Shown: positions 6,724-27,349, counted from the first letter of the stretch. The stretch is DNA of 64,000 bases from a virus (IMGVR_UViG_3300037067_015211:96001-160000), one strand, 5' to 3'. Numbers and translations: made by a program. Notes: generated by a model from the letters alone, not told the origin.

Positions 6724-7095
6724 ATGGAAAAACGATTACACCATGTAGGCTATAAGTGTTCCAAAAATATAGACAGTGTATTGGAATTTCTCAAACACGG
6801 ATATACAATAGCAAAGATGGGATACGAACCTGAGTTTAGAACAAAAAATGTGGTGTTTGAAGTGCCTGAACAACACATTTATTTAGAATTGGTAGATTTT
6901 CAGGAAGAGAACTCGCTAAAGGAAGGCCACTATCACAACTGTTACGAGGTAGAAAACATCGAAAAAGCGTTGCCACATTTCTATGAACTGGGCTATAAAA
7001 AAATCTCGAATATTGTTGACTCTATGGTGTGGGGTGCTAGAATAATATATATGTTCTCTAAGGAAAATGGTTTTTTAGAACTCATAGAAAGGTAA
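6724..7095 (+). CDS. VOC (glyoxalase/methylmalonyl-CoA epimerase-like) family protein
   Basis: LHHVGY..YLELVD..HYHNCYEVENIE..LELIE metal-binding pattern. Confidence 0.8.
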   Translation: MEKRLHHVGYKCSKNIDSVLEFLKHGYTIAKMGYEPEFRTKNVVFEVPEQHIYLELVDFQEENSLKEGHYHNCYEVENIEKALPHFYELGYKKISNIVDSMVWGARIIYMFSKENGFLELIER

Positions 7096-7099
7096 AACT

Positions 7100-7534
7100 A
7101 TGAACAAAGAAGAAAAGAACAAGGAATTAATTAAAAAAATCAAAAAATTTCAAAAAAGATACATGGTTAAAAATAAAAAAGAGAAAATGCCTGCATCTAT
7201 ATACTCTCTTTTGGACTGCATCAAAAAACACAAAGCATTTTTTCCAGAAATATACAACAAAGCTAAATTAACTTCAGGTATAGGAAAAATGCTTTGCAAA
7301 GATGCAGGATATATCGATGAACAATTTAAGATCATTAAGTATGCATACAATTTAGGCGAAATTGATTTGACAGAACTCATCGACAATATTCAAAATTCGC
7401 TGGAAGATAAAATAGAAAACGAACAAGAAAAAATTAATGCGGCTGTAAATACAGATATGGTGTTAAACAATAAACCACTTGTGTGCCCAAGAGCAGATCC
7501 AAAAATTGAAAAAGAAATCAAATCATTGCAATGA
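7100..7534 (+). CDS. hypothetical protein
   Basis: 144-aa ORF in the operon, ATGA overlap with fkbH. Confidence 0.6.
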   Translation: MNKEEKNKELIKKIKKFQKRYMVKNKKEKMPASIYSLLDCIKKHKAFFPEIYNKAKLTSGIGKMLCKDAGYIDEQFKIIKYAYNLGEIDLTELIDNIQNSLEDKIENEQEKINAAVNTDMVLNNKPLVCPRADPKIEKEIKSLQ

Positions 7535-8859
7535 TATTTGTCTCTAACTACAACAGTTCCACAATGGCCTCGAACCCCATCATGTATGAGGCTATTTTCT
7601 CGCTAAATAAAATAGATGATTCCGAGTGCGTAATCTCCATATACAACCCCACCGAGCACACAAATCATTTGTACTACGCCAGCACACTAGATTTCATAAC
7701 TAAATTAGTAACGAATAACACAAACACCCATTTTTACATCACAAACTACATTTTAGACACAAACAATTCTTTGCTCTCCAACAACGATGAAATACAACGA
7801 TACAATGAAGCCCTAAGAGAAATTGGTACTCAAAACTATACCATTGTAGATATTAACAAAATTGCCTTAAAATATGGCAGAGAAAACATAGTTTCCAATA
7901 AATTCTGGTATTCCTACTCGTGTCCGTTCACCAAGAAGGGCCAGAAACGCGCCATAGAGGCCATAGAAACCGCTAGGACGGTCAACAATGGGGGCGGCAT
8001 CAAATGTATTGCACTAGACGGCGACAACACGCTCTGGAGGGGAATTATCCTAGAAGGCACAGCCGAACTTACCGCCGAATACGAACATGTGCAAAATATT
8101 TTGCTCCAATATCGCAATAATGGTATTTTTCTAGCCCTTTGTTCTAAAAATAGAGAGCAAGATGTTTGGCGTTTTTTAGAAGAATGTCCGCTAAAACAGA
8201 AGCATTTCAGTGCCAGTAAAATCAACTTTATGCCCAAGGCCGACAATGTAATAGCGGTCGCCAAAGAACTGAACATATCACCCAAACATATCCTATTTAT
8301 CGACGACGACGATTACAATCTGATTTCCGTCAAAGAAACTTGTGGTGCTTATACACTATCTTCTTTACCGGCAGAAAATTTGGCAGAAAATATACTGTCT
8401 TATCCTTTACTCGATTACAAATTTTTGACCCTAGAGGATGAAAGACGAATAGAATCTTTCGACTATGTGGCTAAAAACAATATTGCCCCTACATTTACCA
8501 TAACAACCGATCCAAATAGTCACCGCATTGCCCAGATGAGCGTCAAAACAAATCAGTTTAATCTCAATAAATATCCCCTAACCGCAGAGCAAGTAAAAAT
8601 TCTTACCGAAAAAAACAAATTGTTTGCATGTGAAATGTTTTATGATATAATATCCTATGGTGTTGTAGCATACGCTATACTTGAGGAAGATACAATACAA
8701 CAATTTGTGGTGTCGTGCAGAGTGTTTGGAATGGGCGTAGAAAATATATTGTTGAACGAACTAAAAAAGAATGGTGCAACCAAGGGCAAAATAAACAAGA
8801 CAGAAAAGAACAAAATGTTTCATGACTTTTATCTTAATAATAGGATCGAAGAATGTTAG
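7531..8859 (+). CDS. fkbH: FkbH-like HAD-IIIC phosphatase / glyceryl-ACP transferase
   Basis: KCIALDGDNTLWRG, LALCSKN, LFIDDD, RIAQMSVKTNQFNL, SCRVFG motifs. Confidence 0.9.
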   Translation: MIFVSNYNSSTMASNPIMYEAIFSLNKIDDSECVISIYNPTEHTNHLYYASTLDFITKLVTNNTNTHFYITNYILDTNNSLLSNNDEIQRYNEALREIGTQNYTIVDINKIALKYGRENIVSNKFWYSYSCPFTKKGQKRAIEAIETARTVNNGGGIKCIALDGDNTLWRGIILEGTAELTAEYEHVQNILLQYRNNGIFLALCSKNREQDVWRFLEECPLKQKHFSASKINFMPKADNVIAVAKELNISPKHILFIDDDDYNLISVKETCGAYTLSSLPAENLAENILSYPLLDYKFLTLEDERRIESFDYVAKNNIAPTFTITTDPNSHRIAQMSVKTNQFNLNKYPLTAEQVKILTEKNKLFACEMFYDIISYGVVAYAILEEDTIQQFVVSCRVFGMGVENILLNELKKNGATKGKINKTEKNKMFHDFYLNNRIEEC

Positions 8860-9074
8860 ATAGAGTGATTGCCATATTGACATCTATTCTTAAAATAAAA
8901 ATAGATGAAAAATCGGAAAGAAAAAACATACTCCAATAGGACTCGATGCAAAACCTAAATATTATCATGACGCTAGAAGAAGAGTTTAAAATTGACATCC
9001 CTATGGATTGTTTTAAAGAATTATCGTCCGTAAAAACAATTGTAAAATATTTGGAAAATCAAAAATGTACTTGA
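8853..9074 (+). pseudogene. acyl carrier protein interrupted by an in-frame TAG (8937-8939); absent from ORF track
   Basis: MLDRVIAILTSILKIKIDEKSERKNILQ*DSMQNLNIIMTLEEEFKIDIPMDCFKELSSVKTIVKYLENQKCT; the TAG sits at the W of the WDS phosphopantetheine motif; overlaps both neighbours like an operon gene. Confidence 0.85.
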
Positions 9075-9580
9075 TAAACGCAAATCCATCTGATGCTGAC
9101 GATGTTCAATTTTGCATGTCTATCCGCAATAATCCGGATAACCACAAATTTTTTCACCAGAATATGCATATCACGGAAGAAATGCAAACTGCATTTATGG
9201 CAAGAGAAAAATATTTTTACATCATCATCGATAATGAAAAACGTGTGGGCACCATAAGCTTATACAATATAAATGGCGATACTGGCGTACTCGGAAGATT
9301 CTTTGTCGTCCCAGAACAACGATTTTCTGTAGTTGCAACACTATCGGAAGTGTTGATTGTAACAAAGGGATTTGAAGACCTTGGGCTGAACACACTGCTT
9401 TGTGATATCGTACAAAACAACATGACCATTATCAATATGCACGATAACTTTGGATTCAAAACATACGAAGAAAAAGATGGAATAGTCTATATGAGGCTAA
9501 ATAAAAATGGCATTACTCCATTTTACCACAAAATGCATAAACGATTTATTGGCAACAAATATCATGACTTTTGGAGATAG
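9065..9580 (+). CDS. GNAT N-acyltransferase (PseH/RimJ-like)
   Basis: IRNNPD..RVGTISLY..GFEDLGLNTL..V..NN..I.MH..FGF pattern. Confidence 0.8.
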   Translation: MYLINANPSDADDVQFCMSIRNNPDNHKFFHQNMHITEEMQTAFMAREKYFYIIIDNEKRVGTISLYNINGDTGVLGRFFVVPEQRFSVVATLSEVLIVTKGFEDLGLNTLLCDIVQNNMTIINMHDNFGFKTYEEKDGIVYMRLNKNGITPFYHKMHKRFIGNKYHDFWR

Positions 9581-9582
9581 AC

Positions 9583-10296
9583 ATGAATGAACTAGATGAA
9601 ATTGCACCAAACTACAACACCGTCCTCAACAACAAGATTAACAGGAAAATTAATGAATGTACATATAGAACTCTGAAAAGATACTTGGATGAATTCGATT
9701 CTGGAAATGTTTTGGAAATTGGTTGCGCCGATGGTAGAGTAACCCAACATTTAATCACACACAATATCAATCTAACATGTGTGGATGGGAGCGAAAAACT
9801 CCTACAGCTAACAAAAGAAAAGTTTCCATCAATCACTGCGGTTAATTCCATGCTTGAAGATTGGGAAACAGAGCAAAAATTTGATTTTATCATATGCTCA
9901 TTTGTATTAGAACATGTGGATAATGTTGGAAAGTTTCTCGGAAAAATAAAATCGCTTTGCCATGAAAAAACGCAAATATTTGTTGCCGTGCCCAATGCAT
10001 GGTCATTTCACAGAAAGGCCGCACTTGCCGCTGGCATGATAACAAAAATAGATGAATTCAGTGAACTAGATAAAAAAATGGGACATAAAAGATATTACAA
10101 TCCCATGACATTTAGGACTGACATGCTTCTAGCAGGATTTTATTTACTCGCTGGAGGTGGAATACTTTTTAAGCCACTCCCAGAATCCGATATGGCTAAT
10201 TTACGAGATGAAACCCTAGAAGCTTTTTATCTGCTAGGAAAAGACTATCCAGAACATTGCAATATTACATATGTCGTGGCAAAAGCAGGAGACTAA
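9583..10296 (+). CDS. class I SAM-dependent methyltransferase
   Basis: VLEIGCADG, VDGS, FDFIICSFVLEHV, VAVPNA; start at ATG 9583 after GGAG. Confidence 0.9.
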   Translation: MNELDEIAPNYNTVLNNKINRKINECTYRTLKRYLDEFDSGNVLEIGCADGRVTQHLITHNINLTCVDGSEKLLQLTKEKFPSITAVNSMLEDWETEQKFDFIICSFVLEHVDNVGKFLGKIKSLCHEKTQIFVAVPNAWSFHRKAALAAGMITKIDEFSELDKKMGHKRYYNPMTFRTDMLLAGFYLLAGGGILFKPLPESDMANLRDETLEAFYLLGKDYPEHCNITYVVAKAGD

Positions 10297-10298
10297 CC

Positions 10299-11426
10299 AT
10301 GTATCAAGTATTCAGACCATACATGACAGAAGCGGAAGAAAAAGCCGTAATCGAAGTGCTTCGTTCTCGATGGATCGGGCTGGGGCCAAAGACAAAAGAA
10401 TTAGAAGATAAATTTGCCGAATATACGGAATCAAAATACTGCGTTACTCTAAACTCGTGTACAGCCGCGCTAGACATGGCACTACGACTATGTAATGTTA
10501 GACAACATGATAAAGTGCTGGTGCCGACAATGACATTCGTATCCACAGCACATGCAGTTTGTTACAATGATGCAATGCCAATATTTGTAGACTGTGACGA
10601 AACCCTTCAGATGGATATTATAGACCTTGAAAGAAAAATAGATAAATTTGTAAAGGCAATCATTGTCGTTCACTATGGAGGAAGAATTAATTCTCATATC
10701 AAACAAATTGCAGAAATTTGCAAAGAAAAAGGAATTTACTTAATCGAAGATTGCGCTCATGCGGCTGGCTCTTGGCTAAACGATAAGCATGCTGGTACAT
10801 TCGGGGATATTGGGTGTTTTTCCTTCCATGCGGTAAAAAATCTTGCTATGGGCGACGGCGGGGCAATTATTACGGCCAATGAAGAGATGGCGACTAGGGC
10901 AAAGAAGGTGCGCTGGCTTGGAATCGATAGGGGCACTTGGGATAGAACGGCCAACAACAAGGAATATTGGTGGGAATACATTGTCGATGAAATCGGATAT
11001 AAGAATCATCCATGCGATATTCTATCCGCCATTGGCGTAGAACAGCTAAAAAAACTGGAAGCAATGAACAACATGAGATATTTTATCTACAACACATATA
11101 GAGAAAACCTTAAGACACTGATAGAACAAGGTCTAATAGAAATTATGCCAGACGATACCACATCAAGCCTTTCCTCATGGCATTTGATGGTAATAAAGGT
11201 AAGCGAATTGGACAGAAATGATTTGTCTTTATGCCTAAAAGAAAAGGGAGTAAATACTGGCGTACACTACAGGCCAATTCATATGTATCCGTGCTATGGC
11301 AATACCCCGCATCTTCCAATAGCAGAGGAAATATTTAAAAAGATTCTTTCACTCCCAATGTATTACGATTTAACGGCGGAAGATGTCAAAATAATTTGCA
11401 ATCATATTAAAGAATTTTATGAATGA
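10299..11426 (+). CDS. DegT/DnrJ/EryC1/StrS NDP-sugar aminotransferase
   Basis: NSCTAAL, PTMTFVST, VHYGG, EDCAHAAG, GCFSFHAVKNLAMGDGG (PLP Lys), GVHY, ILSLPMY; start ATG 10299. Confidence 0.95.
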   Translation: MYQVFRPYMTEAEEKAVIEVLRSRWIGLGPKTKELEDKFAEYTESKYCVTLNSCTAALDMALRLCNVRQHDKVLVPTMTFVSTAHAVCYNDAMPIFVDCDETLQMDIIDLERKIDKFVKAIIVVHYGGRINSHIKQIAEICKEKGIYLIEDCAHAAGSWLNDKHAGTFGDIGCFSFHAVKNLAMGDGGAIITANEEMATRAKKVRWLGIDRGTWDRTANNKEYWWEYIVDEIGYKNHPCDILSAIGVEQLKKLEAMNNMRYFIYNTYRENLKTLIEQGLIEIMPDDTTSSLSSWHLMVIKVSELDRNDLSLCLKEKGVNTGVHYRPIHMYPCYGNTPHLPIAEEIFKKILSLPMYYDLTAEDVKIICNHIKEFYE

Positions 11427-12820
11427 CAACAAAGTTTTTTATGCGAGAACAATTATGCTTCGCCGAACTATCGGGCGACCATAATCCGATTCATACAGAC
11501 CCAATAGCCGCTAGACGCTTAATTTTTGGCAATCCCATAGTACACGGCGTCCATCTATTATTGTGGGCAATGGCACAGTGGGGTGGCGATAAAAAAAATA
11601 TATGGATCAATTCCCTAACAGTTACATTTAATACTCCATGTTATCTTGAAAAAGAAGTAACATATTTACTAAAAAAGGATGATGGCCAACACGTTATAAT
11701 AGAATTGTTTTCAGAAAACAAACCTATTGTCTCAATAGAATTTTTTTGGTCTATTCGTGTACAAGAAGAAACCACGCTGGCCGAAAAACCATTAACTAGC
11801 CAAAAATGCAATGATTTGTCAATCGATGACATAGACAATGCAAAGGGTAAAATACCGCTCTACCTCGATATGCAAAGATTTGAAGCATTCTTTCCAAATC
11901 TATTTGCATTTTCCAAACTACAAATTGCACAAATCATTGCCACAACAAGGCTCGTTGGCATGGAATGTCCCGGCCTAAACTCAATTTTTTCGTCATTAAA
12001 CATCAAGTTTTCACAGCACATAAACAATGACGACATTGCATATGAAACAACAAAAATAGACAAACGATTTGGGCTGGCAACAATTAAAATATCTTCCGAT
12101 GGGATGAGCGGAATTATACACTCTATCATTAGGCAGAAACCACAAAAGCAAATTTCATTTTGTCAAGCAAAAGAAATGGTTGGAGCAAATGAATTTGCAT
12201 CTCAAAGAGCACTCATTATAGGCGGTTCTCGTGGCCTCGGAGAAATAACCACAAAGCTTTTAGCCGCCGGTGAGGCCAGTGTAAGGTTTACATACAACCA
12301 AGGCAAGGACGATGCCAATTTAATACTAGATGAAATACAACTCGATACCATTAATGCACTTCAATACAATATTTTTGACGATAACCTTCCCCTTCCGCTA
12401 GAAATATATGGCTGGAGGCCGACTCACTTATATTATTTTCCAACACCATTTATCTTGACGGGAGAAAACGGAAGATTTTCAAATGAATTGTTCAAAAAAT
12501 TCTATGACTATTATGTGCTTGGAATCAACAAAATATTTTATACCCTTGTAGATAGCGGGTTAAAGTCAGTCTTTTATCCATCATCTATTTTTGTGCAAGA
12601 GATACCGTGCAATATGTCTGAATATGCCATAGCCAAATCTGCTGGGGAACAACTATGTAATTTTTGGCAACAAACATGGCCCAACATCACAATATATACT
12701 CCCAGACTTCCAAGAATAAATACTGACCAAACGGCAAATATTTTTGCGCCCGACAAACAAAGTGGAGAACACGTTCTCTTAAAACACATTAGAATATTAA
12801 ATAGTTTAGTGTTGCATTAA
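11423..12820 (+). CDS. MaoC-like hot-dog dehydratase fused to SDR/ketoreductase
   Basis: FAELSGDHNPIH..IVHG and LVGMECPGLNSIF (double hot-dog); ALIIGGSRGLG and YAIAK (SDR). Confidence 0.85.
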   Translation: MTTKFFMREQLCFAELSGDHNPIHTDPIAARRLIFGNPIVHGVHLLLWAMAQWGGDKKNIWINSLTVTFNTPCYLEKEVTYLLKKDDGQHVIIELFSENKPIVSIEFFWSIRVQEETTLAEKPLTSQKCNDLSIDDIDNAKGKIPLYLDMQRFEAFFPNLFAFSKLQIAQIIATTRLVGMECPGLNSIFSSLNIKFSQHINNDDIAYETTKIDKRFGLATIKISSDGMSGIIHSIIRQKPQKQISFCQAKEMVGANEFASQRALIIGGSRGLGEITTKLLAAGEASVRFTYNQGKDDANLILDEIQLDTINALQYNIFDDNLPLPLEIYGWRPTHLYYFPTPFILTGENGRFSNELFKKFYDYYVLGINKIFYTLVDSGLKSVFYPSSIFVQEIPCNMSEYAIAKSAGEQLCNFWQQTWPNITIYTPRLPRINTDQTANIFAPDKQSGEHVLLKHIRILNSLVLH

Positions 12821-12839
12821 CAAACAATTTTGCTATACT
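12812..12839 (+). promoter_or_regulatory. sigma70-like promoter
   Basis: TTGCAT-16 nt-TATACT with TGn extension; AAGGAG RBS before 12860. Confidence 0.55.
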
Positions 12840-12859
12840 AGAAGAAAAGGAGAAAAGAA

Positions 12860-13315
12860 ATGAAAAAGCTACTCGCATCAATCTTGTTGGTCTTCGCCTC
12901 GTGTCAGTACATTCAACCCCAGCCTACAACACAGGAACAAACACAACAAGCCAAAACGCCCCCATTCGACGAAGCAGAAGGATATCAAACAAACTTTGTT
13001 ACTGACACTATGGCCAGCACGATCCAACAATGGATTGACTGGACAAAGCAAGAGCTAGAAAAAGTCGGACAACTAGACAATGACGCCAGAGAAAAGATTC
13101 TCAACAATCTCAAGGAACGTCTCGTAGCACACGGCAATATATCCGATACGGAAGCAAATGAATTTGTAGAAAAAATCAGCCCACGAGTAGAGAGACTTAT
13201 CAGGGCATTTGTTTCTGGCAATAAGATTGAAATCGGTCTGGCCACTATTAGTGTTCTGACAGTGCTCATTCCGTTCATCATTGTGATTATCCGTCGTCGT
13301 AGGAACAAAAAATGA
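12860..13315 (+). CDS. lipoprotein with C-terminal transmembrane helix (u-spanin-like architecture)
   Basis: MKKLLASILLVFASC lipobox; C-term IGLATISVLTVLIPFIIVII followed by RRRRNKK. Confidence 0.6.
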   Translation: MKKLLASILLVFASCQYIQPQPTTQEQTQQAKTPPFDEAEGYQTNFVTDTMASTIQQWIDWTKQELEKVGQLDNDAREKILNNLKERLVAHGNISDTEANEFVEKISPRVERLIRAFVSGNKIEIGLATISVLTVLIPFIIVIIRRRRNKK

Positions 13316-13959
13316 CAAAGTTTGACAAACAGTATTATGAAGAACAGGCCAAACAAATACCCAAAGAGGTTACACTTTACAAGCTAGGTATATCTCGATA
13401 TCGATGGCTTATTGAACACCTATTACGCATATACAAGAACCCTACTGCCGTTAATATCTTAGATATAGGCATACAGGATGGACAGTTTGCAACCGGCACA
13501 GCGGCATTTGACTTCAACGTAATAGGAGTCGATATAGCCGATGAATATGTAAGAATAGCAAAATTGCTAAGAAAAAACGTTCTCCCAGAGGACAAAAACA
13601 TAAGCTTTCAACAAGCAGATATTTGTGACTGCGAAGAGTTTGTGGCTGGCAAAAAAGACTTCTTCGACTGCGCATATTCATTTGAAGTCTTGGAACATGT
13701 ACCCGACTTGCCAAAAGCGTTGCAAAATATCCATACAATGCTAAAAGAAAATGGATTGCTGTTTATCTGTGTACCCAACGAAAATAGCTGGGCACATGAT
13801 GAATCTCATATTAGAAAGTTTTCGGCGTACAATAAAGAGGGGCATATTCATCTGTATCGTGGACTTGAGATTGAACGGTTTGAAGTCTGTAAAATTGAGG
13901 TTGCACAGTACGATGAAGCAAATAGCTGGTTATACGCGAGCCTACAAAAGTTAAAATAA
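13312..13959 (+). CDS. class I SAM-dependent methyltransferase
   Basis: ILDIGIQDG, GVDIA, FDCAYSFEVLEHV, LFICVPN. Confidence 0.9.
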   Translation: MTKFDKQYYEEQAKQIPKEVTLYKLGISRYRWLIEHLLRIYKNPTAVNILDIGIQDGQFATGTAAFDFNVIGVDIADEYVRIAKLLRKNVLPEDKNISFQQADICDCEEFVAGKKDFFDCAYSFEVLEHVPDLPKALQNIHTMLKENGLLFICVPNENSWAHDESHIRKFSAYNKEGHIHLYRGLEIERFEVCKIEVAQYDEANSWLYASLQKLK

Positions 13960-14671
13960 AAAATAAGACAATAATTTTAGCCCAATTGATAAATGGAGCA
14001 AGCCATTCCGTTTCTCCATGAGTAGCCATTGAGGGTATTGGTGAAACCAATGTCTTGCCCTTTCTACCAACTACAGTAAAATAAGCCTTGCTATTTGTGT
14101 GCGTATCATTATTGTTTCGTATAATAGCGTCAAACATATCTGCATCGTCTATTAGCGTTTTTACCTTGGCGGCAAATGTCATTGGCGTACTGGGCACGAA
14201 CACCCAGTGGCTATTGTCTGTCGTATAGCACTTGGTGGGCCAAGAGTCTCTATTTTCTTTCATGTATTTATCTGGATGATCGTATAGCGTAACATAATCT
14301 GCTATTGCAATGCCTTCCATTAGTATCTGGGCAGAACCAGCGCAATGTATGTAATCGTTTTCAACAAAATAAATGACATCTTCTGGATTGTTGTTTTTAA
14401 CCGCGTGATCGTAGGCAAATATAAAACTTTTTCTATTGGCCACTGAAGTTCTGAATATTTCCGTTATTTTATCGCCATGCCTATCTTTTAGTATGTTGTA
14501 GGTTTCGTCAGTTACGTTGTCTGCCACAACATATAGTTTGTCATATTTGAAATTTTTTAAAAAATTGTTGAAACAATTTTTATTACATATGTATTCTGGC
14601 TTTACTTTGCAAAACCCTTTATCACTTAGGCGATAATAAACAATTATTTGTCCAGACAAACTTTTGCCCAA
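13811..14671 (-). CDS. GT-A fold glycosyltransferase-like protein (paralog of 14644..15339)
   Basis: VADN, IYFVENDYIH, YVTLYDHPDKY, STPMTFAAKV, ATHGE; 3' end overlaps the convergent methyltransferase. Confidence 0.75.
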   Translation of the reverse strand: MGKSLSGQIIVYYRLSDKGFCKVKPEYICNKNCFNNFLKNFKYDKLYVVADNVTDETYNILKDRHGDKITEIFRTSVANRKSFIFAYDHAVKNNNPEDVIYFVENDYIHCAGSAQILMEGIAIADYVTLYDHPDKYMKENRDSWPTKCYTTDNSHWVFVPSTPMTFAAKVKTLIDDADMFDAIIRNNNDTHTNSKAYFTVVGRKGKTLVSPIPSMATHGETEWLAPFINWAKIIVLFFILTFVGSRITSYLLHRTVQPQFYRLQTVQSQVHDTDEYAPLYCTPKTF

Positions 14672-15339: not shown

Positions 15340-15376
15340 ATAATTCCTTATCTAAATTGTAAAAATAAGTATACCG

Positions 15377-17478: not shown

Positions 17479-17521
17479 GCCATTTTCCTACACTATTAAA
17501 TCATAGGAAAATAGATGGATA

Positions 17522-18302: not shown

Positions 18303-18305
18303 TTT

Positions 18306-19153: not shown

Positions 19154-19156
19154 CTC

Positions 19157-19738: not shown

Positions 19739-20088
19739 ATGATTTCCGCCACTTCTTTATCGGTATCGTGTAATACCATGCTGTATTCTCCGACCAAATT
19801 TTCGTAAATAGATTCTATGATAAACTGTCTTCTTGCATGTTTATCTTCTTCTTCTTTGCCATAAACATTAATGTAAAGAAAATCCTTGTTGTTCTCTTCC
19901 ACCAAGCCCATTATTTCCTTATCAAACGTAACCTTCAAATACTGACCAGCCTTACTGTTGTCACAAAATACGACACAACTCGCCGTCTTATCGTTCAGCA
20001 ATCTTTTCAAATGAGCAAAATCATTTGCATTAAAATCATCTCTTGAATGAAGCAGGATAAGTGCAATTTTATTTTCCTTATCAATCAT
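19735..20088 (-). CDS. hypothetical protein
   Basis: 117-aa ORF in operon. Confidence 0.6.
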   Translation of the reverse strand: MIDKENKIALILLHSRDDFNANDFAHLKRLLNDKTASCVVFCDNSKAGQYLKVTFDKEIMGLVEENNKDFLYINVYGKEEEDKHARRQFIIESIYENLVGEYSMVLHDTDKEVAEII

Positions 20089-20093
20089 GGCAA

Positions 20094-20705
20094 TCAGGAC
20101 TCCTTGAAATATGTTTTTACCATGTCTTCAGTCATTTGCTCCACGCTGACTTTAAAATCTTCTAAAGTGCCAGAGTTAAAAATAACTCTCTTAAAATCAT
20201 AATCGTCTAAAGAAACTTCCGAAGAGTGCAAATCATTTGCATCCTCGATAGCCCTGTTGATCCTAATTGCCTCAATTACAGGACAGACAATTTCTGCGCT
20301 TAATGGAGAATAGCATTTAAACCCATCCCAGTCCATTTCGTTGGGATATCGGCAGTCCGTAATCATAGCCACATCGAATTGTTGCTTGTACATCAAGCGA
20401 GTAAGTTTTTCTTTCAGAATGTTGACCCAATAATTTGGCTCTACAGTTCTATAAAACTCGCCTACGAATTGCATTACTTCCCTACAAGTCTTTTTATATT
20501 CTGGAATGAGCACTTCTTTCTTATCGCCGTAAAGATGTTCGTAGGTGAAATATCTAAAATCTCTGGCCACCACATCCTTGACAGAGTCCGCAAATGCAAA
20601 CTGTTCTGCCGTTATGTTATGTTTTTTAAATGCTTCTTTGAAAAAAATTGCCGCTTGATTTTTGCCGTGTCGTTTTTTTCCGCTTATCAGTAAAACCATT
20701 TTCAT
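20094..20705 (-). CDS. deoxynucleoside monophosphate kinase (phage type)
   Basis: ISGKKRHGK, FAFADSVK, REVMQFVG, YWV, ITDCRYPNE, HSSE, IFNSGTLEDF. Confidence 0.85.
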   Translation of the reverse strand: MKMVLLISGKKRHGKNQAAIFFKEAFKKHNITAEQFAFADSVKDVVARDFRYFTYEHLYGDKKEVLIPEYKKTCREVMQFVGEFYRTVEPNYWVNILKEKLTRLMYKQQFDVAMITDCRYPNEMDWDGFKCYSPLSAEIVCPVIEAIRINRAIEDANDLHSSEVSLDDYDFKRVIFNSGTLEDFKVSVEQMTEDMVKTYFKES

Positions 20706-20717
20706 TAACGAATATCC

Positions 20718-21398
20718 TTAATATAAAACATTGTCTTTCCACTTCTCGTGATATTTTGTGGCGTTTTTGCAATCTTGTAGATGTGTATCGTATCGACTTC
20801 TATTGCCGCCTCTTTTGTGCCACACCTTGCTGTCAGCACATGTCCATACCTCAAATCCATGCTTCAAAAGCCTACGATTCATATCGATATCCGCCCATAG
20901 CCCAACGCCAATAAATTCTTCATCCCAAAAATAGCCGTCTTTTTCCATCAGTGTATCATATACCTTTGCGCTGAACATATCCGGAGAAAACCCAGACCCC
21001 TTTACATTTTCCGTTAAATCCTTATGATTCCAATTACAGGCAGATGCCCTGCCAATTTTCTGATTTTGTTCCATAAAACAATGTAGTTTGTCTAACCAAT
21101 CTGGATATTTGTCAAATCTCATATCGCCATGTAAGAGTAAAAAATATTCGCAGCCATTCTCAAATATCTTTTTTGCCGCCCAATTACATGTCGGTATTGC
21201 ATGCTCTCCGTTAACATGCTGGCAAAATACTGCATTATCATAACACCATTTTTTTAAAGACAAATCCTCTTGCTCGTTTTTGTCGATACACAAAACAAAA
21301 TGTTCTTCGAAATTAATGCACATTTTCAATGTGCCAAACATTTCACAAACATCTTCTGTATCGTTAAATGCCAAAGAAACAATGCCTATCTTTTTCAA
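20718..21398 (-). CDS. GT2-like glycosyltransferase
   Basis: YFLLLHGDM, FWDEEF..LWADIDMNRR..VWHK. Confidence 0.8.
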   Translation of the reverse strand: MKKIGIVSLAFNDTEDVCEMFGTLKMCINFEEHFVLCIDKNEQEDLSLKKWCYDNAVFCQHVNGEHAIPTCNWAAKKIFENGCEYFLLLHGDMRFDKYPDWLDKLHCFMEQNQKIGRASACNWNHKDLTENVKGSGFSPDMFSAKVYDTLMEKDGYFWDEEFIGVGLWADIDMNRRLLKHGFEVWTCADSKVWHKRGGNRSRYDTHLQDCKNATKYHEKWKDNVLY

Positions 21399-22231
21399 AC
21401 CGCGATTCCTCTATAAAATTGTTCGTACTTAAGGGCATGCCATTCCTTCATCTTGGCTCTCCAGCTTTCGGCCTCGTCCCAAGAACAATTCCATTTTTCC
21501 ATAAACTTCTTGCGATTATTCTCATTATACTGCATACCAGTATTACTGTAGTCTGTCATCATGCCAATAATTTGAGGATTGTTACGTGTAACGGCCCCAT
21601 AGTGCATAATGCAACTGCGGCCTGTAACGAGGCATTTCTTGCCACTATCGTAAACACGCTTGTAAAAATCCACATCTTCCCAACAAGCTGGATAGAAACG
21701 TTCATCAAAACCGCCGGTAGATGCAAGGTAATTTCTGTCTATTAAAAAACATGTTCCGTGGAAGCCATCTACGGTTTTATCGTAAAACAGCTTTTCCTTT
21801 TCATACACATTTTTCCATTCTTTTATTCCAATCTCAGGCAAACACATTGCAACACATCCATCTTTTTGATTCTCAAGGTACGCATCTCTCATAATAACAT
21901 CGTAATCTTCTGTAACCAGCGTATCTGAATTCAAATAAATAAGATATTTTTCATCAAATGAATTGTAGTTAATAATACGGTTTGCAAATTCAGAGCAACT
22001 TAATGGCCGCTTTTTATTCGTGTCAAACATATATTCATATACAAGCTTTCGGTCCATTCTACTAACCATCTCTCCAATATCGTCCTTTATAATTTCTGCT
22101 ATTGGAGGGGTGCCGTTGTCTACAAATACAATTGTTCTTGCTTGTCCATATTTTAAACAAGACAAAACACAATTTTTTGTCATTTCGTAGTTCGTAACAT
22201 GCGCTATAATAATTGCAGTATCCGTAATCAT
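21395..22231 (-). CDS. GT2 glycosyltransferase
   Basis: VFVDNG, YLNSDT, GTCFLI, GGFDERFYPACWEDVDF, IMHYG. Confidence 0.9.
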   Translation of the reverse strand: MITDTAIIIAHVTNYEMTKNCVLSCLKYGQARTIVFVDNGTPPIAEIIKDDIGEMVSRMDRKLVYEYMFDTNKKRPLSCSEFANRIINYNSFDEKYLIYLNSDTLVTEDYDVIMRDAYLENQKDGCVAMCLPEIGIKEWKNVYEKEKLFYDKTVDGFHGTCFLIDRNYLASTGGFDERFYPACWEDVDFYKRVYDSGKKCLVTGRSCIMHYGAVTRNNPQIIGMMTDYSNTGMQYNENNRKKFMEKWNCSWDEAESWRAKMKEWHALKYEQFYRGIAV

Positions 22232-22243
22232 TTTTTTCTCCCG

Positions 22244-22927
22244 TTAAACTATCATTCCTCTAGTTTTCCATTTATTTTGATGATAGGCCGTATTTTTAAA
22301 CTCCCATTCCTTTCTTGGAATCCGTCCCCGCGTTCCCATTCCCTTATGCCAAACCGTGCTTCTAGGCGTTACAATAATGTCGTAGCCAAGGGCAACGATT
22401 TTCCTATTGATATCGTCGTCATCCCAACAACAAGCCCCAAGGTAATTTTCGTCGTAAAATTCGCCATATTTTTCTACCACCTTATCCACCACTTCCTTGC
22501 GGATAATCGTAGGACATCCATTGCCCGGTCGATCCTTTGTACAATTATCCAAATTCCAATTTCTGGGAGTTGCCTTTCCGGTCTTTGGAGTCTCATCCAT
22601 ATACTGAACAAGTTGTTCTATCCAAAGAGGATTGTCGAAAATCATATCGGTATGCACCCAAAGTACATATGTACAATCCAATTCGTTGCATAGCTTAAAT
22701 GTCCCCATGTTTAACGCCGTAGTCAAATTACCAGCAGTTCCCAAATATGTGATGCCATTATTTTTGCAAAACACTTCAAGATTAAATGGTCTTATGCCCT
22801 CAAGAATCCCATCAATCAATACTATGGGGCACTCCTGAATATTTTTGCAACCCCTTAAGGTGGCAAACATTTTTACAAGTTCTTCGTAATCATTCAAGGT
22901 AGTTAAAATGATGCCTGTCTTAGTCAC
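22244..22927 (-). CDS. GT2 glycosyltransferase
   Basis: VLIDG, VLWVHTDM, YDENY..WDDDD, VWHKG; probable GTG start at 22927 overlapping the upstream TGA. Confidence 0.85.
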   Translation of the reverse strand: MTKTGIILTTLNDYEELVKMFATLRGCKNIQECPIVLIDGILEGIRPFNLEVFCKNNGITYLGTAGNLTTALNMGTFKLCNELDCTYVLWVHTDMIFDNPLWIEQLVQYMDETPKTGKATPRNWNLDNCTKDRPGNGCPTIIRKEVVDKVVEKYGEFYDENYLGACCWDDDDINRKIVALGYDIIVTPRSTVWHKGMGTRGRIPRKEWEFKNTAYHQNKWKTRGMIV

Positions 22928-23877
22928 TTGCCTTCTCCTACAAATCGTTGAACCGCCCAATCATACGTATCGTACCAGTTTCCACACTCTTCTTTTTTCG
23001 CCTGCCATTCTATCCAAAGTGGATCATTATTTGTTTCTATGATCCACTTTTGAAACTCTCGAACATTGTCAACCACATTGTTCTGTATCATTTTACCATC
23101 TTTAAAATATTCATCAAATATAATCCGACATGCTTCTGGATATACTCCAATAAATGGAATTACCACATTGTCCTTGACTCTGCTTTCAATAACCCCAGCA
23201 GGATTTCCATGATCCAAATTCCACTCTACGCCCTCTTTGGCCTCCTTATATCGCTTCAAATTACCGTCTGAAATCATGTCATACTTCAGCCAGCGCAAAA
23301 ACACTTCATAAGACGCCTTTAGCCCATAACCAAAATGAAAGTATGCCATGTCCTTGGATAAGAAATTTTTGCCCTTGGGGATGCCCACCACAGCCTCATG
23401 CACTCCGCCACCCCATTTTGTATCTTTCGTGATTCTAAAAATATTATTTTTTATGTGATAAGACCGCTCAATCTGAATACAAAACGGAGACCCCATAAAG
23501 TGATAAAATCTTTGCGTTATCCTAGCGTATTCCTTATCCGTCATTATGTATTTCTTCAGATGCTCATAATCGTTACGATTAATCACATCGTCACAATCAT
23601 GCCACACCACCCAGTCTATTCCACTGTTTACACTGTGCTCTAACGCCTTGTTTCTAAGCGCATCAAACCCCTGATTGCCATAAAACTCAATATACTTCCA
23701 GTCAGAATTTCCTCTATTCTTGTACTTTTCAACAATAGCCCTAACATTATCGCTACAACCATTATCGACAAATACAATTTGGTCAAACACATTGTCGATG
23801 GAATTCATAAACATTTCCACCATCAATTCTTCAACTTTTCCAGATTCCTTAGCTATGATATTTAATGCTACAGACAT
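22924..23877 (-). CDS. GT2 glycosyltransferase of the SunS/flagellin-GT (protein-glycosylating) type
   Basis: VFVDNGCSD, FDALRNKAL, DWVVWHDCDD, WGGGVHE, FHFGY; start at ATG 23877 after AGGAG. Confidence 0.75.
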   Translation of the reverse strand: MSVALNIIAKESGKVEELMVEMFMNSIDNVFDQIVFVDNGCSDNVRAIVEKYKNRGNSDWKYIEFYGNQGFDALRNKALEHSVNSGIDWVVWHDCDDVINRNDYEHLKKYIMTDKEYARITQRFYHFMGSPFCIQIERSYHIKNNIFRITKDTKWGGGVHEAVVGIPKGKNFLSKDMAYFHFGYGLKASYEVFLRWLKYDMISDGNLKRYKEAKEGVEWNLDHGNPAGVIESRVKDNVVIPFIGVYPEACRIIFDEYFKDGKMIQNNVVDNVREFQKWIIETNNDPLWIEWQAKKEECGNWYDTYDWAVQRFVGEGK

Positions 23878-23878
23878 A

Positions 23879-26080
23879 TTATAAACTCCTGCAAAGATCA
23901 AGCACTTGTTGAGTAAAATTATCGATGTGGTATTTATTTATTAGCTCTTTTCTCATCTCCGTACAATCAAAAAACACGCCTCCAGTAAACCAATTTAGCA
24001 ATTCATTGATGTCATCGTAAAACTCAATACCTATTTCATTGCCCATTTCTTCTTTTATTACCTTTACATCATCAAAAAACGGGCTGTCATTTCTAAGAAA
24101 GATGGGCGGCTTTTTAGTATTTAAAAGTGTGCGTAAAGCCGCAGATGCACCCATACCACCATAATTATAATAATTCAAAACAATGGCACTTGCCTTTCTA
24201 AGAGTTGCAATAACTTTTTCTTCCGGAGTATGTTCTTTAATCCAAGTAACATTATTTTGCAAATCGCAAGACACTATCAACTGTTCAATCTGCTCCTTAT
24301 ACTTTGCATTATCTCTCTCAGTCGTCGTACAGGCCATAAGCAGATGTGTCGGCAAACCCATTGAATTTAGTTTCTTAGTCAAAATAATTAATTCGTTCAA
24401 CCCCTTGTGAAAAAAGGTAAAACCAAACGTGCCGATTACAAATTTATAGTCATTAGGAATTTCTTCTGCAATACACTCTTGCGGATTATATTCTAATTCA
24501 CGACATGGATAATGCATGAACTTTACCTTCTTGCCATCATGCCCAAGTCGTTTAAACTCATCCACAACTTTAGGATTATGCGTTATAATGGCATCTGAAT
24601 ATTCATAGATGAGGTCGTTCATCAAAAAGCAATCACGCACAAATGTATGCATTATGTTTATAATCTTAATATTTCTTGCCTTTAACCCCTTAAAAAATAT
24701 TTTCAACCTCTCGCTATGATAAAAGAAATCATATTGCATCTGATTAATAACATATTTAACGTCGTATCGTTCAGCCACCTTTAAAAGAGAAAATGGTGGG
24801 CCTCCAACAGACACCAAGTTAGCACCATTTTTCATCAATGACTGCGCCATATGCGTATTATAGTCGGCTATTCCACAAACTTGTCTGGCCGAATTACAAT
24901 ACAGCATTATATTTTCTTTATCTGTTTTGGGAGAATAAATAACCGGCTTTTTTATGTCCAATGCATCTATCAATTTATCCGTCGTAACTGTTACATTAAA
25001 ATTCTTTACCACATAATCTGATACCTTTGGCTTCAATTCATCAATCTTAGTCAAGACATCAGCAACTTGGCTTTCATCAGGAGAATACCAAACTGAATTG
25101 CGGTAAATACGAGCCGTAGGCCCAGTAACCCCAATATCCTTTATCAAATTACAATCTATAAGGTGAGCATTGTCATCATTCAAATATTGAACATATGATG
25201 TAGACCGGGGGGCAATGATTTGCTTGTTCATACACGCCATCTTAGCACACGTAATATCCCAGCCTTCCCCATACGATGTTGTGAGATAGTGGGTAAAATT
25301 AGCCAAATAAAATTGTAGATCGCCCTCTGCCCAAAACTGTGTATAAATACAAACATTGGGAGAAATGCCATATTCCTTTTTTAGTTTCTTGTACTCATCC
25401 ATAAACCCTTCAAACTTATTGCCGCTATTGCTATTCACCTTCAAAAACAAACATGTCTCGTTACGAGTCTTTTCGCTCCAATTCATCCACGCCTTGAAGT
25501 AAGAGCGTATCGCGCACCAAATATTTTTTCTCGTTATCAATTCCTGAAGAATAAGAATCCTGTTCCTATAAATAGTCCGTATATCCGCCAGTTGCCCATT
25601 TTTTCTCGCAAACAACGGCTTACACGGTATCTCTGGATTAAACAATTTTGTATTCGTTCCAATAGGAACAATATCAATAAAATTACCGCCTATTCCAGAA
25701 TCCATCCAAACTTTTTTGCAGTGTTCGGAAGGCACAAGCGTCAGGTCCATATTGTCTGAAGCGGTAAGCCACTCCGCTGGCAGAATGCCACCACATTCAA
25801 TCATGGTGTAATTTATATTTCTTGTATTCGTATGTAAGTTTTGTTCCACTTGTTCGGGGAGGCAAAAATTCAAACTACAAATTGGTTTGAATGTGCTGTT
25901 TTTAATAGCACTTTCAAATATTTTGTCCCTTAATTTCGGTGTCCCCGCCCAATGCTCAAAATTCTTTAGTGCAATATTCCAACCCTTAATGAAAAGCCCA
26001 TAACAAAAATTTCTTACCACTTCGGAATATCCCGTAAGCGTATCGTAAGGCCCGTAGATTTCAATCTCTTTCCAATGCAT
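23879..26080 (-). CDS. double-domain GT4-like (GT-B) glycosyltransferase
   Basis: TGYSEV..YTMIE..LVPSEH..RKNI..SYGEGW; second unit CGIADY..IGTFGF..HKG..GASAA. Confidence 0.85.
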   Translation of the reverse strand: MHWKEIEIYGPYDTLTGYSEVVRNFCYGLFIKGWNIALKNFEHWAGTPKLRDKIFESAIKNSTFKPICSLNFCLPEQVEQNLHTNTRNINYTMIECGGILPAEWLTASDNMDLTLVPSEHCKKVWMDSGIGGNFIDIVPIGTNTKLFNPEIPCKPLFARKNGQLADIRTIYRNRILILQELITRKNIWCAIRSYFKAWMNWSEKTRNETCLFLKVNSNSGNKFEGFMDEYKKLKKEYGISPNVCIYTQFWAEGDLQFYLANFTHYLTTSYGEGWDITCAKMACMNKQIIAPRSTSYVQYLNDDNAHLIDCNLIKDIGVTGPTARIYRNSVWYSPDESQVADVLTKIDELKPKVSDYVVKNFNVTVTTDKLIDALDIKKPVIYSPKTDKENIMLYCNSARQVCGIADYNTHMAQSLMKNGANLVSVGGPPFSLLKVAERYDVKYVINQMQYDFFYHSERLKIFFKGLKARNIKIINIMHTFVRDCFLMNDLIYEYSDAIITHNPKVVDEFKRLGHDGKKVKFMHYPCRELEYNPQECIAEEIPNDYKFVIGTFGFTFFHKGLNELIILTKKLNSMGLPTHLLMACTTTERDNAKYKEQIEQLIVSCDLQNNVTWIKEHTPEEKVIATLRKASAIVLNYYNYGGMGASAALRTLLNTKKPPIFLRNDSPFFDDVKVIKEEMGNEIGIEFYDDINELLNWFTGGVFFDCTEMRKELINKYHIDNFTQQVLDLCRSL

Positions 26081-26095
26081 TTAACCTCTCCCAAA

Positions 26096-27349
26096 TTAAA
26101 TTGATGAGAAACAACAAATATTTGCATTTTTTATTTCATGGGCCGAAAACAATCCCCTTTGCATTGCCATAGCAGCATTATCCCATGTGTATTTTTGTGC
26201 TACTTGCAAACCATTTGCCTTTAATTCAGGCAAATACTCTTTGCCCGTCGCCTTACAAAGTTTCCACTCTTGATAAAGGTTTTCAAGTTTTTCGGTAATT
26301 TCTTGCGCACTAGGAAATGCATGATAACAATAATTTAGCACCCTATCGTAACTATTGTTAGTTAGCATAATAGAGTTATTGTCGTTACAAAAATCTGTTT
26401 GGCTACTCCAATTAGTTACAATGGGAGTACACTCGGTTGCGAGTGCTTCCAAACATGTAAGAGCAAATCCGTCACCATGAGTTGGATAAAGCAAGTGGTC
26501 TGCACAATGGTAAAAGGCAACTAAGTCTTCGTCGCTGAATACAATATTAAAGCACATAATTGACGGATGCTCAAACAATTCGAGTGGCATGGCATGAGTC
26601 GGAGACTTCTTGTCGCCAACTGTATGCATTATCATAATAAATCGGGCATCATTCTTGCCCTTGGCGAATTCTATCCATCCGTCTCTCGCCGCACTAACTC
26701 CTTTTCTCGTTTGATTGTGCCCAACATAGAGACAAATAAATTTGTTGTCCACGTCAATTCGAACCGGTGATTTTTCTGTTCGTTGTGTAATTAATGTTTT
26801 AATTTCTTCTCTTTTGCCAGTAGGGGGGACAAAATTTTCAGAAATGCCGTAGGGAACAACTTCAACCGTATAGCCGGGGTTATAGTTTAAAAACACATCT
26901 TTTGCCCAAATAGATGGCGTAAAGATAATATCACAGGTTTCCAAAACAGAACGCCATGCCTCATGGACTGGTTTTGTATCGAGGGTAAAATATCCTGCAT
27001 TCAAAATATGCGGGTATGCCGCCTTTAGCTTAGGCATAAAATCAAACAAAAAGCAATCATGCGAATATACAATAATGTCAGGCCGAATTGTTTCAATAAA
27101 ATTTTTAATACATTCTTCATCATTTCTGACGGCATTGTAGTGTTTAATGCCATCCCATTCATCTACAGTGCCTTTTTTACTATCTTCGTAGAAACCTATA
27201 ATATGCATATCAAATACTTTTTCTACACTTCCGTCATCTTTTCTAGCCGCCATATTATTAAATCGCCGACACATTTCCCGAGTAACCCTAGACTGACCCA
27301 CAAAATGAAGCTTTGGACTATCGGATATCCACGCCAATTTCAATGTCAT
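26096..27349 (-). CDS. GT4 glycosyltransferase
   Basis: WISDSP, TPSIWAK, VPYG, GHNQTRKG, FYHCAD..PTHGDGFALTCLEALA, YTWD. Confidence 0.9.
   Translation of the reverse strand: MTLKLAWISDSPKLHFVGQSRVTREMCRRFNNMAARKDDGSVEKVFDMHIIGFYEDSKKGTVDEWDGIKHYNAVRNDEECIKNFIETIRPDIIVYSHDCFLFDFMPKLKAAYPHILNAGYFTLDTKPVHEAWRSVLETCDIIFTPSIWAKDVFLNYNPGYTVEVVPYGISENFVPPTGKREEIKTLITQRTEKSPVRIDVDNKFICLYVGHNQTRKGVSAARDGWIEFAKGKNDARFIMIMHTVGDKKSPTHAMPLELFEHPSIMCFNIVFSDEDLVAFYHCADHLLYPTHGDGFALTCLEALATECTPIVTNWSSQTDFCNDNNSIMLTNNSYDRVLNYCYHAFPSAQEITEKLENLYQEWKLCKATGKEYLPELKANGLQVAQKYTWDNAAMAMQRGLFSAHEIKNANICCFSSI

Follow-up and report, generated by a model that had tools for sequence, protein, structure and literature searches.

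The phage genome and its glycan cluster

A 64,000-nucleotide stretch of viral DNA (IMGVR_UViG_3300037067_015211:96001-160000; called the window below) was found to carry, between positions 6724 and 27349, a gene cluster that combines an operon for sugar tailoring with eight glycosyltransferase (GT) genes. The operon encodes an FkbH enzyme, an acyl carrier protein (ACP), a GNAT acyltransferase, a DegT aminotransferase, two methyltransferases, a VOC protein, and a fusion of a MaoC dehydratase with a short-chain dehydrogenase/reductase (MaoC-SDR). This bacterial-type cassette may make an N-acylated amino-deoxy sugar with an unusual acyl group derived from glycerate. The GTs would use this sugar, likely on phage-encoded and probably virion proteins; the chance that this reading is right is put at slightly below even.

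The window forms bases 96001-160000 of a single IMG/VR virus genome of 212,568 bp, which CheckV rated 95% complete. The 212-kb genome is that of a jumbo bacteriophage. By PHROG profiles, the window encodes a DnaE-type DNA polymerase, a clamp, UvsX, an SbcC-like nuclease, and a DnaB helicase; a RuvC-like resolvase adds to these, and the major head protein lies at genome positions 197512-198396. The polymerase shared only ~32% identity with the nearest deposited phages. The phage origin assigned in a previous, sequence-only reading of the window was thus borne out by the replication proteins and the major head protein, and a cellular contig was not supported.

Profile and structure checks reproduced all the operon domains named in that reading (VOC, FkbH, ACP, GNAT, DegT, MaoC-SDR, and two methyltransferases), and its count of eight GT genes with nine domains stood on profiles, structure, motifs, and language-model features. 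Its description of a single glycosylation operon over 21 kb held only for the operon itself (6724-13959), which is coherent; the GT genes, however, form a first block at 13811-15339 and a second at 20718-27349, with 5.4 kb of unrelated phage genes between them. The operon consists of ten plus-strand genes whose ends overlap or abut, in the orientation opposite to that of the surrounding genes. Every GT1 and GT2 match in the whole genome fell within this cluster.

Two relatives were recovered from one metagenome, a 103,938-bp contig (L007) with an FkbH 85% identical to that of the window, and a 1.2-kb contig (L008) nearly identical to the window. When compared with L007, every operon gene and both adjacent GT-A genes showed nonsynonymous change (pN) far below a nearly saturated synonymous change (pS). 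The operon and the two GT-A genes are therefore real and selected, and the cassette has been kept by selection in this lineage.

FkbH and the interrupted acyl carrier protein

The FkbH protein scored 164.8 bits on TIGR01686, above the cut-off of 146.65. Residues D163/D165, S205-K-N207, D258/D259, and S395-C396-R397 were present and invariant in 23 aligned homologs, and the protein retained the HAD DxDxT nucleophile motif and the S-C-R cysteine, the predicted carrier of glycerate.

The ACP matched PF00550 at 30.4 bits only when an in-frame TAG codon (8937-8939), which directly precedes the Asp-Ser motif of phosphopantetheine attachment, was read through. The same codon is TGG, and the frame is open, in both L007 and L008, the intact ACP of L007 lying at 11326-11547. 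Recoding or suppression of TAG was rejected, as there was no suppressor among the 8 tRNAs, the relatives have TGG, and TAG is an ordinary stop in this genome, ending 47 of 255 open reading frames (ORFs) with read-through lengths like those after TAA. The interruption, peculiar to this assembly, is thus explained by one G-to-A nonsense change or by a read error. Judged from these codons, the acyl branch is probably inactive or leaky in this assembly, though intact in close relatives.

Such a change could also mean that, in this genome, the acyl branch is an auxiliary cassette in decay, switched off by the ACP mutation, and that only the GTs, acting on plain host sugars, still matter. The TGG-to-TAG change at the codon ahead of the attachment serine is unique to this assembly and is accompanied by neither a suppressor tRNA nor TAG recoding, which speaks for decay. 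The other operon genes, however, are all intact and under purifying selection, and the TGG of the near-identical L008 indicates that the change could have arisen very recently or be an error in the reads. Decay of the branch is considered very unlikely.

The MaoC-SDR fusion and its linkage to FkbH

The MaoC part of the fusion carries the hydratase-2 motif [YF]-x(1,2)-[LVIG]-[STGC]-G-D-x-N-P-[LIV]-H as FAELSGDHNPIH, with residues invariant in the family, and the SDR part has a GGSRGLG loop for NAD(P) and the conserved residues S387, Y401, and K405. The AlphaFold model (pLDDT 83.6) was composed of a double hot-dog domain followed by an SDR domain. In Foldseek searches the model matched MaoC dehydratases (5i7n, 4v12), the hydratase 2 of MFE-2, and the SDR 8ij8, and over its whole length it aligned with the dehydratase-ketoreductase (DH-KR) reducing regions of modular polyketide synthases (PKSs). 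The family, which is large, bacterial, and apparently uncharacterised, contained 1,268 relatives at E <=1e-5, with 39-50% identity among the matches listed, and at least 385 matching stretches were present in reference genomes.

Gene linkage was surveyed in 80 bacterial loci from many phyla, fetched with MaoC-SDR. A homolog of FkbH lay within a few kb of MaoC-SDR in 56 of the 80 loci. Among 150 neighbouring ORFs, the most frequent Pfam matches were PP-binding (14), GNAT (12), polysaccharide deacetylase (9), methyltransferases (8), hexapeptide acyltransferases (5), and KAS III (4). In the locus L075, from a metagenome-assembled genome of Ca. Dormiibacterota, one strand carries GT2, DegT, and FdtA and the other strand carries FkbH, ACP, GNAT, and MaoC-SDR; the locus continues with a Methyltransf_23 enzyme and a Wzt ABC exporter. 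By its gene content, L075 is the phage cassette inside a predicted O-antigen-type locus.

The two proteins are closer still in giant-virus-like IMG/VR contigs (L001:5725-16876 and the matching parts of L002-L005 and L009-L013), where the MaoC-SDR and FkbH matches abut and adjoin a DegT gene. In L001 the two are joined in a single 1505-aa protein, adjacent to an FdtA-DegT fusion. That MaoC-SDR and FkbH are fused strongly argues that the product of FkbH is the substrate of the dehydratase-reductase. From their genes, these contigs look like carriers of an undescribed viral acyl-amino-sugar cluster. The neighbourhood in L001 also contains a TylF-type O-methyltransferase, a fusion of a 4,6-dehydratase with a 2-oxoglutarate (2OG) oxygenase, and Kdo-type genes.

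With the bacterial linkage, the giant-virus fusion, and the gene order of L075, the ACP-dependent N-acyl-amino-sugar module that had been proposed from the window proved coherent. The relative phage L007 has the operon genes too, and the giant-virus-like contigs have part of the set. FkbH is nearly absent from deposited phages: 50,697 phage records gave two weak matches only, and the one of these that was examined had no other operon gene nearby. Full-text searches of the available literature turned up no paper on an FkbH encoded by a phage or a giant virus.

Enzymes predicted to act on the sugar and the acyl group

The best NCBIfam model for the GNAT was PseH (TIGR03585), at 45.9 bits and below the cut-off of 93.1. 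Its nearest solved relatives were the sugar N-acyltransferases PseH and FdhC, and FdhC transfers a 3-hydroxybutanoyl group. The GNATs of the cassettes in the window (9065-9580), L007 (11559-12068), and L075 (6916-7524) are without the central Gly of the coenzyme A (CoA) binding loop Q/R-x-x-G-x-G/A, the loops being RFSVVA, RFSSMS, and RGSMAA. This change is a weak hint of a non-CoA donor and could reflect acyl-ACP.

The DegT match to PF01041 was full-length (profile positions 3-359 of 360). Among 52 solved relatives at E below 1e-20, TlmJ and ArnB were the best, ahead of QdtB and PseC, which points to C4 amination of a nucleoside diphosphate (NDP)-4-keto sugar without naming the sugar. The best NCBIfam model was PseC (TIGR03588), at 284.3 bits and below the cut-off of 423.5. 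The first methyltransferase (MT1) was 35% identical to the methyltransferase of the bacterial cassette L075. The VOC protein was 79% identical to its L007 counterpart, with pN/pS far below 1, and its best NCBIfam match was methylmalonyl-CoA epimerase, a weak match (29.6 bits) below the cut-off.

Steps supplied by the host

The sequence-only reading had noted the absence of a phosphopantetheinyl transferase (PPTase), a nucleotidyltransferase, and a 4,6-dehydratase from the window, and this now extends to the genome: searches of the whole genome found no nucleoside triphosphate (NTP)-transferase, NAD-dependent epimerase/dehydratase, PPTase, NeuB, or CMP-transferase. The host must therefore supply the NDP-keto sugar and the activation of the ACP. 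A pseudaminic or legionaminic acid pathway was rejected, as neither NeuB/PseI nor a CMP-transferase was found and the PseC and PseH scores were below their cut-offs. With this gene content, the phage does not by itself make a nonulosonic acid as its product. No ketosynthase family was matched when the cluster genes were scanned with Pfam, and the acyl enzymes are stand-alone genes, not a PKS polypeptide. Their likeness to a PKS loading module lies in function and structure only.

Proposed pathway and the identity of the acyl group

The proposed pathway was assembled throughout from homology and gene linkage. FkbH would take the glycolytic intermediate 1,3-bisphosphoglycerate, remove phosphate, hold glycerate on Cys396, and pass it to the small ACP; glyceryl loading onto ACP by FkbH is given as established (Sun et al. 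2008, as cited in PMC4552970). The ACP would first be activated by a host PPTase. The MaoC dehydratase would then remove the C3 hydroxyl to give pyruvoyl-ACP, and the fused SDR would reduce this to lactyl-ACP, in the way that the dehydratase and ketoreductase of the FR901464 starter module reportedly turn glyceryl-ACP via pyruvoyl-ACP into lactyl-ACP. The VOC protein may set the C2 configuration by epimerising the acyl group, and one or both methyltransferases may O-methylate the acyl group, the sugar, or both. DegT would aminate a host-made NDP-4-keto-6-deoxyhexose, the PseH/FdhC-like GNAT would place the acyl group on the resulting amine, and the eight soluble GTs, given as five GT-A-type and three GT-B-type genes, would then assemble an oligosaccharide. 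An N-acyl sugar derived from glycerate has a natural parallel in the 2,3-di-O-methylglyceroyl-pseudaminic acid of Campylobacter jejuni flagellin. We infer a lactyl or an O-methyl-glyceroyl product.

A different use of the same genes would leave the acyl group as glyceroyl or 2,3-di-O-methylglyceroyl, with the methyltransferases capping both hydroxyls of glyceryl-ACP and MaoC-SDR acting elsewhere or trimming a side product. The operon has two class I methyltransferases, and PseH and PseC were the best-scoring models for GNAT and DegT. Moreover, the flagellin of Campylobacter jejuni has been demonstrated to carry 2,3-di-O-methylglyceroyl-pseudaminic acid (PMC3068675; bioRxiv 10.64898/2026.04.20.719630), and its locus holds the FkbH-domain gene cj1302 (PMC7099621). 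However, MaoC-SDR is the partner most tightly linked, even fused, to FkbH, which argues for its action on the FkbH product. In addition, a lipoprotein gene separates the second methyltransferase (MT2) from the core of the operon, and there are no NeuB, PseI, or CMP-transferase genes for a nonulosonate. A glyceroyl product of this kind is regarded as rather unlikely.

Acceptor of the glycan

Glycosylation of proteins, most plausibly those of the virion, is the leading reading for the acceptor, as a best guess. The particles of giant viruses and actinophages are known to be glycosylated, and the giant-virus contigs with the same module would weakly provide a viral precedent for virion glycosylation. 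Leader-tagged, putatively packaged proteins encoded around and inside the cluster also point weakly to the virion. In ORFs of the structural region (genome 164598-197403; loci L101 and L102, outside the window), the tripeptide S-G-[I/L/V] occurred 13, 12, 11, and 8 times against about 1 expected (13 against 1.2), and it was 6- to 11-fold over-represented in eight ORFs near the major head protein gene. PHROG annotation gave no match for any of the eight. The excess is statistically real and is a third weak pointer to the virion. The spacing of the tripeptide was partly periodic (13 and 24 residues).

Several points weigh against the proposal that the cassette makes an acylated amino sugar for virion proteins. 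The ACP frame is broken by TAG in this genome, and the phage is uncultured. The two methyltransferases are as compatible with a di-O-methylglyceroyl product as with a lactyl one, and the best relatives of DegT (TlmJ and ArnB), together with its PseC score below the cut-off, leave its substrate undefined. The GT blocks lie within the replication and nucleotide-metabolism module, beside a deoxynucleoside monophosphate (dNMP) kinase and the resolvase, rather than among structural genes; they are ~37 kb or more from the structural block, whereas the GT genes of actinophages tend to lie nearer the structural genes. Given its partly periodic spacing, S-G-[I/L/V] could equally be a fibre repeat as a glycosylation site, and it serves as a lead only. 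Finally, the acceptor is not revealed by GT family membership; the GTs that act on phage DNA derive from the same families as those of lipopolysaccharide (LPS) and teichoic acid (bioRxiv 10.1101/2023.12.21.572611).

During infection, the cluster might instead alter a glycan on the surface of the host, such as that of the O-antigen, capsule, flagellin, or S-layer, with exclusion of superinfecting phages or a change of receptors as possible benefits. A host keto-sugar nucleotide would be diverted into a new acylated sugar, which the phage GTs would then add. The bacterial counterparts of the cassette sit in surface-polysaccharide loci with Wzt exporters, the phage relies on the host for its sugar nucleotide, and a gene for a membrane-anchored lipoprotein lies inside the operon, all of which would suit this role. 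On the other hand, the Pfam families matched by the cluster genes included no Gtr-type membrane GT, initiating phosphoglycosyltransferase, flippase, polymerase, or ligase (families not looked for elsewhere in the genome), and the lack of the lipid-linked-route families weakens the case for remodelling of a host lipid-linked glycan. Eight soluble GTs are also many for serotype conversion, and no lysogeny genes were seen in the part of the genome that was scanned, although no systematic search for them was made. Remodelling of the host surface is considered improbable.

Another possible target of the GTs, whether or not they use the modified sugar, is the phage DNA, whose glycosylation would be a hypermodification against restriction. 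The GT blocks lie among replication genes and adjoin a T4 gp1-like dNMP kinase and the RuvC-like resolvase, and phage DNA GTs come from ordinary GT-A and GT-B families and can add di- or trisaccharides (bioRxiv 10.1101/2023.12.21.572611). Known phage DNA glycosylation is described as starting either from hydroxymethyl- or hydroxy-pyrimidines made by thymidylate-synthase homologs (PMC13326640) or from 5-hydroxymethylcytosine (5hmC) made by a C5 methyltransferase and a TET-like oxygenase (bioRxiv 10.1101/2023.12.21.572611). In the whole, 95%-complete genome there was no match to PF00303 (thymidylate-synthase homolog, the hydroxymethyl- or hydroxy-pyrimidine synthase type) or PF00145 (C5 DNA methyltransferase), with working positive controls; the search with TET/JBP (PF12851) likewise gave no match, but its positive control was silent as well. 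A normal flavin-dependent thymidylate synthase, ThyX (168.8 bits), is encoded at genome positions 48610-49203, far from the GT cluster. A normal ThyX is consistent with ordinary thymidine in the phage DNA. An acylated amino sugar on DNA is unmentioned in the abstracts and outlines of PMC13326640 and bioRxiv 10.1101/2023.12.21.572611. Since the acceptor-base enzymes were not found and the ThyX is ordinary, DNA is an unlikely target, and its glycosylation by this cluster is judged highly improbable.

Comparison with known systems

The bacterial FkbH-ACP-GNAT-MaoC/SDR and DegT cassettes, such as L075, resemble the phage cassette in their proteins and largely in their order, with an aminotransferase, a methyltransferase, and a GT2 adjoining. 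They differ in that their loci hold 3,4-ketoisomerase and Wzt export genes, whereas the phage cassette has no isomerase, exporter, dehydratase, or nucleotidyltransferase and has in addition a VOC protein, a second methyltransferase, and eight GTs. Such bacterial cassettes are widespread and, as far as found, biochemically uncharacterised.

The flagellin island of C. jejuni shares FkbH and PseC/PseH-like enzymes with the phage, and it places a glycerate-derived N-acyl amino sugar in O-linkage on protein. We take the C. jejuni locus to hold ACPs and methyltransferases as well. Unlike this island, the phage lacks both a nonulosonate synthase and a CMP-transferase, and its DegT and GNAT do not reach the cut-offs of PseC and PseH. 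The phage cassette includes MaoC-SDR.

The lactyl starters of FR901464/bryostatin-type trans-AT PKSs and the glyceryl-ACP loading of tetronate pathways are similar to the phage system in FkbH, ACP, dehydratase, and ketoreductase. The phage enzymes differ from the starter modules in being stand-alone, in the MaoC/hydratase-2 type of the dehydratase, and in the predicted transfer by GNAT to a sugar amine. The glycan clusters of giant viruses (GVMAG-type L001-L005) likewise have virus-encoded DegT, MaoC-SDR, FkbH, and a sugar methyltransferase. However, their three acyl enzymes are fused in the 1505-aa protein, L001 has its own 4,6-dehydratase and isomerase, and the proteins are only 27-33% identical to their phage counterparts.

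In actinophages of the mycobacteriophage Che8 type, soluble GTs are presumed to decorate capsid or tail proteins. To our knowledge, actinophages have few GTs only and no sugar-tailoring pathway, and their GTs are kept near structural genes. The present phage, by comparison, has eight GTs and a tailoring operon, located in the replication region. The annotation habit for actinobacteriophage GTs is found in PMC11256854. The phages with glycosylated DNA (T4 with glucosylation of hydroxymethylcytosine (hmC), RB69 and DLP3 with arabinosyl-5-hydroxycytosine (5hoC), and clusters of methyltransferase, 5mYOX, and GT genes) share with this phage multiple GTs near nucleotide-metabolism genes including dNMP kinase. 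They differ in their acceptor-base enzymes, which were not found here (thymidylate synthase homolog and C5 methyltransferase; the control of the TET search was silent).

Organization of the operon and its remaining genes

The genes of the cluster are listed in Table 1. A scan of the operon for promoters and terminators gave sites no more frequent than in shuffled sequence. Two operon genes had been absent from the earlier listing, those of a 144-aa protein and a 151-aa lipoprotein.

Table 1. Genes of the sugar-tailoring operon and the two glycosyltransferase blocks
Feature	Position	Strand	Basis of assignment
VOC/glyoxalase-fold protein, first operon gene	6724-7095	+	four Pfam glyoxalase/VOC families, all below cut-offs
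144-aa Lys/Glu-rich protein	7100-7534	+	no Pfam match; NCBIfam only Csx31, far below cut-off
FkbH-type HAD-IIIC phosphatase/glyceryl transferase	7531-8859	+	TIGR01686; conserved residues
Acyl carrier protein, interrupted	8853-9074	+	PF00550 with TAG read through
GNAT N-acyltransferase (predicted)	9065-9580	+	Acetyltransf_3, 32.8 bits
Class I S-adenosylmethionine (SAM) methyltransferase MT1	9571-10296	+	Methyltransf_23, 67.8 bits
DegT/DnrJ/EryC1-type pyridoxal phosphate (PLP) sugar aminotransferase	10257-11426	+	PF01041, 342.6 bits
MaoC double-hot-dog dehydratase fused to SDR ketoreductase	11423-12820	+	motifs, model, linkage; 465 aa
151-aa lipoprotein	12860-13315	+	lipobox Cys, C-terminal transmembrane anchor; u-spanin-like topology
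Class I SAM methyltransferase MT2	13312-13959	+	Methyltransf_23, 80.1 bits
GT-A-fold glycosyltransferase	13811-14671	-	paralog of next gene, 46-47% identity; family without Pfam model
GT-A-fold glycosyltransferase, ExD motif	14644-15339	-	AF2 model, pLDDT 95.8
GT2-like glycosyltransferase	20718-21398	-	FDExF...WxDxD motif; weak SpsA match; Atlas 0.98 to viral GT2 clusters
GT2-like glycosyltransferase, borderline	21395-22231	-	Glyco_tranf_2_2, E 3.9e-5, below cut-off
GT2-like glycosyltransferase	22244-22960	-	paralog of 20718-21398: shared GT2 motif, 32% identity
GT2 glycosyltransferase	22924-23901	-	PF00535, 54.6 bits, above cut-off
733-aa protein with two GT-B (GT1/GT4) halves	23879-26080	-	C-terminal half PF00534, above cut-off
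GT-B (GT1/GT4) glycosyltransferase	26096-27349	-	PF00534 and PF13692, above cut-off

The 144-aa protein was 75% identical to its L007 counterpart, with a dN/dS of 0.09. Its identity as an FdtA-type ketoisomerase was rejected, as there was no cupin signal and the protein is Lys/Glu-rich and helical. The 151-aa lipoprotein is composed of a lipobox (VFASC), a Q/P/T-rich linker, a helical domain, a C-terminal transmembrane helix, and an RRRRNKK tail, and this topology resembles that of a unimolecular spanin (u-spanin) or a membrane-tethered lipoprotein. It is kept in the relative (L007:16160-16627) with 40-47% identity. That the operon includes a lipoprotein anchored in the membrane by its C terminus is a hint of a diderm host. 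In L007, a gene for an N6/N4 DNA methyltransferase (15285-16100; PF01555, 152 bits) lies between the MaoC-SDR and lipoprotein genes, and the window is without it.

Glycosyltransferases and the genes between the blocks

The model of the ExD-bearing member of the GT-A pair (14644-15339), built with 73 sequences, had POMGnT1, GnT-I, the GT domain of LH3, and SpsA as its closest folds, with TMq values of 0.56-0.61 to POMGnT1, GnT-I, and LH3. Nucleotidyltransferases matched this model too, at lower TM, and the transferase activity is a prediction. Residues E95 and D97, which form the Glu-x-Asp of 'VE(D/N)DY', were invariant in the 73 sequences of the family. Among viral models, those of cyanophage S-SRM01 and uncultured phages were nearest to the pair. 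A profile search gave more than 1,500 family representatives at 50% identity, and elsewhere the domain is fused to GT1, GT2, DUF5672, TOD1/MUCI70, and CmcI-type sugar methyltransferase domains. The pair was also considered as the missing nucleotidyltransferase, which is less likely in view of the lack of a Gly-rich NTP loop, the presence of ExD, and the fusions to GT domains elsewhere.

The other member of the pair (13811-14671) has a hydrophobic C-terminal extension of ~50 residues, which is lacking in its paralog and probably in the shorter, 258-aa L007 ortholog as well, and whose coding region shares 149 bp with the 3' end of the convergent MT2 gene. This extension may have arisen through loss of a stop codon and not be a genuine tail.

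In the second block, the borderline GT2-like protein (21395-22231) also had a PHROG galactosyltransferase match (E 1.8e-4). The N-terminal half of the 733-aa protein was placed with GT1/GT4 clusters by a language model (Atlas 0.99) and gave a weak PHROG GT match, and the last GT-B protein (26096-27349) had distant matches to GTs of Streptomyces phages. Sequence-only searches of the PDB with both unassigned GT pairs gave nothing significant.

The genes between the two blocks (15377-20705) encode an HNH nuclease, a leader-tagged 353-aa protein, SLBB and WYL proteins, two metallopeptidases, a sigma-like protein, and the dNMP kinase. The metallopeptidases (17811-18728, minus strand) are tandem paralogs of PF18894, 'putative phage metallopeptidase', and adjoin the WYL-domain and SLBB-domain proteins. 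The 353-aa protein (15750-16811, minus strand) starts with MIYNTWRKRLA, a leader tag shared among proteins of the phage; it was rejected as a GT, since it showed no GT signal and begins with this tag.

Significance

The synthesis of glycans by viruses, FkbH/ACP chemistry, and N-acyl amino sugars are all of known kinds, whereas their combination in a phage and the module of stand-alone FkbH plus MaoC-SDR appear to be undescribed. It is possible, though on balance somewhat unlikely, that the jumbo phage coats its particle or other phage proteins with an oligosaccharide of N-lactyl or O-methyl-glyceroyl amino-deoxy sugars, using a module shared with bacteria and giant viruses. If true, this would define a new and widespread route from a glycolytic intermediate to N-acyl sugars, and if the pathway works as proposed, few sugar-tailoring systems known from bacteriophages would be as elaborate. 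The MaoC-SDR family of ~470-aa proteins would thereby gain a testable job, the conversion of FkbH-loaded glyceryl-ACP into an acyl donor for N-acyl amino sugars of surface glycans. A glycan coat on the particle would matter for how the phage recognises its host, how it is recognised by the immune system, and how stable it is.

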